Assembly (NCBI RefSeq): GCF_050920415.1
Contig: NZ_CP169309.1
Length of the DNA: 64,000 bases
From: Escherichia coli
GTDB taxonomy: Bacteria; Pseudomonadota; Gammaproteobacteria; Enterobacterales; Enterobacteriaceae
Strand: one strand, 5' to 3'
The position numbers were made by a program, and so were the translations under genes. Of this stretch, positions 41,237-42,408 are shown in pieces. A model generated the notes under the pieces. That model did no database searches, was not told the origin of the DNA, and saw only the letters and a list, made by a program, of their open reading frames with translations. The stretch's first letter is position 1. Each line of letters starts with the position of its first letter.

Positions 41237-42408
41237 ATGCTGAGCAGAGAGGACTTTTACATGATAAAGCAAATGCGCCAGCAAGGTGCGTATATTGTTG
41301 ATATTGCCACTCAGGTTGGTTGCTCTGAGCGGACTGTCAGACGGTACCTGAAATACCCGGAACCTCCGGCCAGAAAAACACGCCACAAAATGGCCAAACT
41401 CAAGCCGTTCATGGACTATATCGACATGCGTCTGGCTGAGAATGTCTGGAACGGCGAGGTCATCCTGGCGGAAATCAAAGCGATGGGTTATACCGGTGGC
41501 CGTTCCATGTTGCGTTACTACATCCAGCCCAAACGTAAGATGCGGCCATCGAAGAAAACGGTTCGCTTCGAAACTCAGCCCGGTTACCAGCTACAGCATG
41601 ACTGGGGAGAAGTTGAGGCTGAGGTTGCCGGGCAACGATGCAGGGTTAACTTCGCGGTTAATACGCTGGGGTTCTCACGTCGCTTCCATGTCTTCGCGGC
41701 ACCAAAGCAGGATGCTGAACATACCTATGAGTCACTGGTCCGCGCCTTTCGCTACTTCGGCGGCAGCGTGAAAACCGTGCTGGTCGATAACCAGAAAGCC
41801 GCAGTGCTGAAAAATAACAACGGGAAGGTGGTGTTCAACTCCGGGTTCCTGCTGCTGGCCGATCACTATGGCTTCCTGCCACGGGCCTGCCGTCCACGAA
41901 GGGCCAGAACCAAAGGTAAGGTGGAACGGATGGTGAAATACCTCAAGGAAAACTTCTTCGTCCGGTACCGCCGGTTCGACAGCTTCGCCCATGTTAATCA
42001 GCTACTGGAGCAGTGGATGGCTGACGTTGCCGACAGGCGGGAACTTCGCCAGTTCAGGCAGACACCGGAACAGCGCTTCACGCAGGAACAGGTGCATCTG
42101 CAGGCGCTGCCAGGTACGGACTTCGATACCAGCTACTTCGATATCCGTCATGTCTCCTGGGATGGCTATATCGAGGTTGGCGGGAACCGTTACAGCGTGC
42201 CGGAAAGCCTGTGTGGCCAGCCGGTATCAATACGGATCTCGCTGGATGATGAACTGCGATTTACAGTAATGAGCAACAGGTAGCATCGCACCGTCTCTGT
42301 TCGGCTGTATACGGCTGGCAGACCGTGCCGGAGCATCACGCCCCACTCTGGCAGCAGGTCAGTCAGGTGGAACACAGGCCGTTGAGTGCCTATGAGGAGC
42401 TGTTGTGA
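41237..42408 (+). CDS. istA: IS21-family transposase IstA, apparently frameshifted near 3' end
   Basis: ORF 41237..42283 (348 aa, HTH plus DDE region) stops early; the -1 frame continues with about 40 protein-like codons ending at a TGA that overlaps the istB start; total about 388 aa. Confidence 0.7.

Follow-up and report, generated by a model that had tools for sequence, protein, structure and literature searches.

A single missing G splits istA of an ISEc62 insertion sequence in a lambdoid Escherichia coli prophage

An IS21-family insertion sequence in the Escherichia coli contig NZ_CP169309.1 (assembly GCF_050920415.1; the window analysed here is a stretch of 64,000 nucleotides) lacks one G of a GG pair at position 42258, within the transposase gene istA. 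The reading frame terminates early as a consequence, yielding an ORF of 348 codons as opposed to the 390 of intact relatives. For annotation, the gene is best called a frameshifted ISEc62 pseudogene, and the element a copy that is probably non-autonomous. Taken as a whole, we consider it likely that a copy of the known element ISEc62 was later affected by deletion of a single G, leaving a truncated IstA and a copy unable to move alone.

A megablast search of 5,426 complete E. coli genomes identified positions 41136–43259 as a copy of the element that RefSeq/PGAP calls 'IS21-like element ISEc62', with 98–99.9% DNA identity over the full length to copies annotated 'IS21-like element ISEc62 family'. 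On the strength of these sequence matches, the window element is assigned to ISEc62 of the IS21 family, a name that follows the RefSeq/PGAP annotation of the homologous copies. Only one ISEc62 copy is present within the window, and its features are as follows.

41136–43259, plus strand: ISEc62 insertion sequence, 2124 bp here as opposed to 2125 bp when intact, delimited by full-length matches.
41132–41135, no strand: left target-site duplication, ACGA, 4 bp, read from the junction sequences and the empty site.
43260–43263, no strand: right target-site duplication, ACGA, 4 bp, read from the junction sequences and the empty site.
41136–41153, plus strand: outer left terminal repeat L1 (TGTCAGCGCCAATGATAT), agreeing at 14 of 18 positions with the right end when the latter is reverse-complemented.
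43242–43259, minus strand: outer right terminal repeat R1 (TGTCAACGCCAAGATTAT as read on that strand), matching L1 at 14 of 18 positions.
41164–41185, plus strand: inner left terminal repeat L2 (with TGTCCGCT from 41178 onwards), a 22-nt inverted repeat with 43211–43232.
43211–43232, minus strand: inner right terminal repeat R2, which pairs with L2 and has TGTCCGCT on that strand, with its start at 43218.
41237–42283, plus strand: truncated istA ORF, 348 aa, comprising native residues 1–341, seven out-of-frame residues (FTVMSNR) and a TAG stop.
42257–42259, plus strand: lesion site, codon 341 being CGA here and CGG in intact copies, with ATT or ATC as the next codon; the GG pair lacks one G at 42258.
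42259–42408, plus strand: out-of-frame istA 3' remnant, native codons 342–390 and TGA in the -1 frame, aligning with IS5376 IstA to residue 393.
42394–42399, plus strand: Shine-Dalgarno-like GAGGAG, 8 nt upstream of the istB ATG, read from the sequence, with a putative function.
42408–43202, plus strand: istB, helper AAA+ ATPase gene, intact, 264 aa (Pfam IstB_IS21, 296 bits).

The element begins with TG and ends with CA (TGTCAGCGCCAA... on the left and ...TTGGCGTTGACA on the right), as do IS21-family ends (5'-TG...CA-3'). Inside the outer repeats, the 22-nt inner pair (I1) is 82% complementary and located 41–42 nt in from each end, and this two-tier arrangement of L1/L2 and R1/R2 is the terminal architecture of the IS21 family. 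The 4 bp ACGA duplication likewise falls within the short target-site duplications of the family (4–8 bp). ISEc62 is located in a lambdoid prophage, between a GH108 endolysin gene and bor. The same prophage is found at approximately 100% identity in E. coli MB07081, where the empty site is preserved, uninterrupted and with a single ACGA. Together with the ACGA duplication in the window, this empty site demonstrates that the window ISEc62 is a genuine transposition product. In the history proposed here, ISEc62 would have jumped into the E. coli prophage between the endolysin gene and bor, and the G would have been lost after that insertion. Immediately downstream of the element, the bor lipoprotein gene (43420–43713, minus strand), a homologue of the phage lambda serum-resistance gene, is intact.

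The istA ORF starts at ATG 41237 and, as the initial annotation had it, stops at 42283, translation placing an in-frame TAG at 42281–42283. The product is recognised by the NCBIfam equivalog transpos_IS21 (280.9 bits against a cut-off of 160), and has the composition of an IS21 transposase, a DDE enzyme with an N-terminal HTH, an rve/RNase H-like core and a Mu-type beta-barrel. Pfam matches on the 348-residue product comprise HTH_23, rve (the DDE domain) and Mu-transpos_C_2, the latter at profile positions 1–50 of 73 only, which suggests, at the level of sequence, a cut-off beta-barrel domain. From 42283 the -1 frame (frame 2) continues with a protein tail of 41 residues, ending at TGA 42406–42408, the A of which is shared with the istB ATG at 42408. 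Translation thereby bears out the earlier observation of a protein-like tail that runs into the istB start. The same observation had taken this TGA for the normal istA-istB junction, and rightly: in the intact copies annotated by RefSeq, the last base of istA is also the first base of istB (ATGA). The truncated ORF ends 125 nt upstream of the junction, which is retained in the native frame only.

Directly downstream of istA, the istB gene encodes the AAA+ helper ATPase (NCBIfam IS21_help_AAA, 297 bits against a cut-off of 200), with a single substitution, A260E, when compared with WP_000544801.1. The window element thus has every structural feature looked for in the IS21 family, with the sole exception of an intact translatable transposase gene, a lack that bears on activity and not on family membership. 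At the other end of istA, an in-frame second ATG is found at codon 9 (41261; region 41237–41263), as in IS5376 IstA. In position it corresponds to the IS21 isoform called 'cointegrase', which is shorter by 8 residues, and ISEc62 may likewise make two IstA isoforms.

The lesion was placed by global alignments to three ISEc62 copies (L001–L003), by blastn to the orthologous copy in the closest relative, strain MFDS1022581 (L006), and by site strings in L002, L004, L005 and L006. The intact site reads CTGCGGATTTAC and the window CTGCGATTTAC; where the window has CTGCGATTTAC, the intact copies read CTGCGGAT(T/C)TAC. From start to stop istA spans 1172 bp in the window, as opposed to a single 1173 bp ORF of 390 aa in intact copies. 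The alignment to intact istA genes proposed at the outset therefore resolves the split to one missing G. Codon 341 still encodes Arg (CGA for CGG), residues 342–348 become FTVMSNR, and the stop follows. The native sequence picks up at Ile342 (ATT, 42259–42261) in frame 2, which is open from 42253, such that 31 nt (42253–42283) are open in both frames. The initial annotation was therefore correct in proposing a frameshift near the 3' end of istA, but had placed it at the stop, with the true lesion at 42258 (codon 341) located 25 nt upstream. Similarly, its match to full-length IstA stands, whereas the total of about 388 aa does not, the intact length being 390 aa.

Adding one G back yields an IstA of 390 aa that is identical at all 390 positions to the intact WP_000952431.1. 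With the G restored, the -1-frame tail shows 100% identity to the C-terminal end of IstA from intact ISEc62 and also aligns with the C-terminus of IS5376 IstA, which shows that the tail is not a chance reading frame. The Pfam beta-barrel match extends from profile positions 1–50 to 1–66 of 73 with the G restored, and rises from 41 to 61 bits. WP_000952431.1 is the intact transposase of a second ISEc62 copy in strain MFDS1022581 (L004). Across 2124 bp of DNA there are no mismatches between the window copy and this second copy, and the two differ only by the missing G and by a 1-base loss in the istB poly-A of L004.

The deletion was not present in any other ISEc62 copy examined. Ten full-length copies were fetched, with an IstA of 390 aa in six and of 388 aa in one divergent copy, while the remaining three are broken, all at other sites. 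A 201-bp query found no place at 100% identity by BLAST against E. coli genomes, and every place among the matches listed was 202 bp in length. A 50-bp query gave at best 98% among 293 E. coli places, corresponding to the single gap. Neither 1,094 plasmid places nor phage records contained the deleted allele by BLAST, and an exact 36-mer of it was absent from IMG/VR, a metagenome collection and species-representative genomes. The 36-mer of the intact allele, serving as a positive control, was found in 9 contigs (7 metagenome and 2 viral). An exact-protein look-up of the 348-aa ORF found no identical gene product on record. Among the sequences compared, the deletion allele is private to this sequence. 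It had been asked from the start whether intact relatives might have the same short IstA and a separate small ORF; no such relative was found among 293–297 places in E. coli, 1,094 places in plasmids, or the contigs from metagenomes and viruses. A naturally short IstA accompanied by a small ORF is ruled out by the intact 390-aa relatives and by IS5376.

Intact ISEc62 elements, which occur both on chromosomes and on plasmids of E. coli (for instance WP_000952431.1 or WP_000952432.1, paired with WP_000544801.1), match the window copy in their terminal repeats, in the order of istA and istB, in the ATGA junction and in istB itself, and differ from it by the one G at 42258 and the consequent 390-aa, as opposed to truncated 348-aa, IstA. 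Decayed ISEc62 copies also occur, such as AOY73_RS12115 (internal stop) and ACE00D_RS12560 (frameshifted), annotated as PGAP pseudogenes. As in the window, these have a point lesion in istA while the ends persist, but their lesions lie elsewhere: a stop after codon 116 (L003), or GGG to GG at the equivalent of window position 42039 (L001 and L006). The orthologous copy in MFDS1022581 is itself flagged 'frameshifted' by PGAP, and another copy is flagged 'internal stop'.

At the lesion site, the orthologous insertion in MFDS1022581 (NZ_CP169399.1) reads GGATC. The GG of this relative shows only that the G was lost after two very close strains diverged, or that the deletion is artefactual. We set this orthologous copy aside as an arbiter, since it has GG at the site but also indels of its own at 42039 and 42492, and the MFDS1022581 assembly contains further broken genes. 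The 1-base losses in MFDS1022581 comprise GGG to GG at 42039 (istA), A6 to A5 at 42492 (istB) and a T at 48736 (portal gene), and the A6 loss recurs in the second ISEc62 copy of that strain (L004). Such losses point to errors in homopolymers, or to gene conversion, in the MFDS1022581 assembly.

The consequences for the protein can be gauged by comparison with IS5376 IstA/IstB from Geobacillus stearothermophilus (PDB 8B4H, 8Q4D), the structural model of IS21-family transposition. Repaired ISEc62 IstA aligns with IS5376 IstA (PDB 8B4H) over residues 1–388 (E = 2e-82), and the absence of gaps across 304–361 means that the residue numbering of the two proteins coincides there. Both share the order HTH-1, HTH-2, DDE, beta-barrel and C-terminal extension, as well as Tyr343, a C-terminal RPLSxY motif and a Met at codon 9. 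IS5376 is nonetheless a separate element, found in another phylum, and its relationship to ISEc62 goes no further than the family; its Arg345 is Asn345 in ISEc62, and the window copy lacks the residues past 341. The extreme C-terminus (42376–42399, native codons 381–388) reads RPLSAYEE, compared with RPLSVYDA in IS5376, despite an overall similarity at the level of the family. On sequence grounds this end, which lies in the tail that is invisible by cryo-EM, may be a conserved short motif.

IstA of IS5376 forms an interdigitated tetramer on the L1/L2 and R1/R2 repeats, stabilised by a beta-barrel comprising residues 300–355 and followed by a flexible helical extension (the last ~45 residues), in which mutation of Gln369 lowers integration (PMC10122671). 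The catalytic subunits of the strand-transfer holo-complex dock with IstB through their beta-barrel, and both the Y343A/R345A variant and IstA(1–287) lose IstB ATPase stimulation and IstB-dependent integration (PMC11208146). Residues past 355 are unresolved in the holo-transpososome, and the role of this region 'remains to be defined' according to the authors (PMC11208146). The window frameshift falls two residues before the conserved Tyr343, the IstB contact in the IS5376 homologue, which is the second residue lost (Ile342-Tyr343). The truncation keeps both HTH domains and the DDE core, and removes the last beta-barrel strands including Tyr343 as well as the entire ~45-residue helical C-terminal extension. 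By homology, an IstA made of 341 native and 7 aberrant residues would fail to form a stable tetramer and to be activated by IstB for integration. The window copy is thus predicted to be non-autonomous and is probably disabled, with the proviso that the nearest assayed truncation, IS5376 IstA(1–287), removes more than the window frameshift does. The terminal repeats of the window copy are identical to those of the copy with intact istA, and istB is intact with its own GAGGAG, such that mobilisation in trans by an intact ISEc62 elsewhere in the cell is possible in principle.

The initial annotation had suggested either an inactive element or an indel error, and the one missing G found by alignment supports this pair of alternatives, which we weigh here without separating them. 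In our judgement the deletion is probably real. The rival view, that the missing G arose during sequencing, assembly or polishing and that the actual copy has an intact 390-aa istA and is normal and potentially active, appears rather unlikely, while deserving serious attention. Read mapping and polishing are least reliable in multi-copy IS elements, and a private single-base indel inside such a repeat resembles an assembly or polishing error. Such an origin would fit with an allele unique among all copies found, with the GG in the orthologous copy of the nearest relative, and with a window copy that is otherwise identical to one with intact istA. The same view could draw on a C/T difference from the orthologous copy at 42261, only 3 nt away, as such clusters can come from mixed IS-copy reads; however, the T at 42261 is also present in L004. 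A Dam-site basecalling artefact was considered and rejected on the same grounds: comparison with L002 had suggested a change from CGGATCTAC, which contains GATC, to CG-ATTTAC, but the intact L004 carries CGGATTTAC, which establishes the T as a genuine synonymous allele and the parental sequence as one without GATC or CCWGG. A change from GG to G is in itself a weak context for error, and the T allele has no Dam or Dcm motif. Moreover, the window is otherwise clean. No window indels were found in the flanks when compared with MFDS1022581 over 18.9 kb and 13.4 kb (32.3 kb), or with MB07081 over 8.4 kb and 13.4 kb, and the homopolymer-type indels sit in MFDS1022581. Only two indels are private to the window, the missing G in istA and an additional CG in the prophage gene gpG. 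The latter is a 2-bp tandem duplication, untypical of platform error; both affect dispensable prophage or IS genes, and neither lies in a long homopolymer or, given the parental T allele, at a Dam or Dcm motif. The clean 32.3-kb flanks, taken together with private indels that lie in dispensable DNA outside of homopolymers and Dam/Dcm sites, favour a real mutation, and we infer a biological origin for the lesion.

Two further readings would grant the split a function. Full-length IstA could be produced by programmed -1 ribosomal frameshifting or transcriptional slippage in the style of IS3 or IS1: the required shift is indeed -1, the 31-nt overlap (42253–42283) is open in both frames, and the IS3-family elements of the same window do use -1 frameshifting, with an AL1L pseudoknot listed for one. 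Against this, the zero frame of istA contains no X_XXY_YYZ heptamer, no A/T run of at least 6 and no G/C run of at least 5, and the split occurs in no other copy, intact relatives and the distant IS5376 IstA each being encoded by one continuous ORF. No recoding is known in the IS21 family. The IS3-family elements of the window (IS2 and an IS629-like element) also have a transposase frame split with a -1 relation between orfA and orfB, but in them the split is a conserved one that depends on a slippery site and RNA structure, in contrast to the unique lesion without a slippery site in istA. With neither slippery heptamer nor homopolymer run, and with an unconserved split, we regard programmed frameshifting or slippage as ruled out for practical purposes, its probability being negligible. 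A real deletion could alternatively have made the truncated IstA a dominant-negative inhibitor of other ISEc62 copies, blocking the repeats or joining mixed tetramers and poisoning them. There are precedents for truncated transposases that inhibit transposition, including Tn5 Inh, IS1 InsA and the P-element KP repressor. The truncated ORF keeps HTH-1, HTH-2 and DDE with no other substitution relative to the intact allele, and the IstA tetramer on L1/L2 and R1/R2 makes mixed assemblies conceivable. On the other hand, the allele was found once, without spread, conservation or any hint of selection, and a beta-barrel cut in mid-domain may misfold and be degraded. A stable IstA(1–341) that binds the ISEc62 repeats without engaging IstB, and so acts as a brake on transposition, is a plausible idea that we nevertheless consider very unlikely to apply here. 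If true, the allele would be a naturally occurring one that uncouples DNA binding and synapsis from activation by IstB, at the Tyr343 strand of the beta-barrel.

Our preferred reading, a real deletion that truncates IstA, concerns a prophage with several other disruptions. The small prophage ORF that holds ISEc62 also holds, 169 bp upstream of it, a complete IS2 (39636–40966, 1331 bp, orfA/orfB) with a 5-bp duplication, GTCAG. This IS2 is missing from the near-identical MFDS1022581 and MB07081, which indicates a recent insertion. An IS3-family element at 24923–26233 is IS629-like, with matches annotated with an AL1L frameshift pseudoknot; it has an apparent 3-bp duplication, CTG, and its site is empty in both relatives. 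The gpG gene (54604–55028), encoding a prophage tail-assembly chaperone, contains a private 2-bp CG tandem duplication at approximately 54755–54758 (GACGCC to GACGCGCC). This second private frameshift of the window splits gpG into ORFs of 77 aa and 81 aa, whereas both relatives have an intact product of 140 aa. The ISEc62 lesion, the IS2 and IS629-like insertions and the broken gpG mark a prophage in decay.

Split genes are also found elsewhere in the window. On the minus strand, ynfE (9019–11206, 2188 bp in total) is divided into ORFs of 537 aa and 215 aa. The closest relative has identical sequence at ynfE, annotated as frameshifted, and the lesion is therefore common to both. A 489-aa ORF (5055–6524, minus strand) starts at ynfG of the relative, also marked frameshifted, and extends well past ynfG.

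Frameshifted IS transposase pseudogenes are routine, and there is nothing new in kind in this one, which represents ordinary mobile-element decay or a possible one-base assembly error. Beyond correct annotation, the finding has little significance. The lesion does, however, fall two residues ahead of the strand with Tyr343, where the 2024 structure of the IS21 transpososome locates the contact with IstB, and this position provides a structural basis for the predicted loss of activity, and one that is testable.
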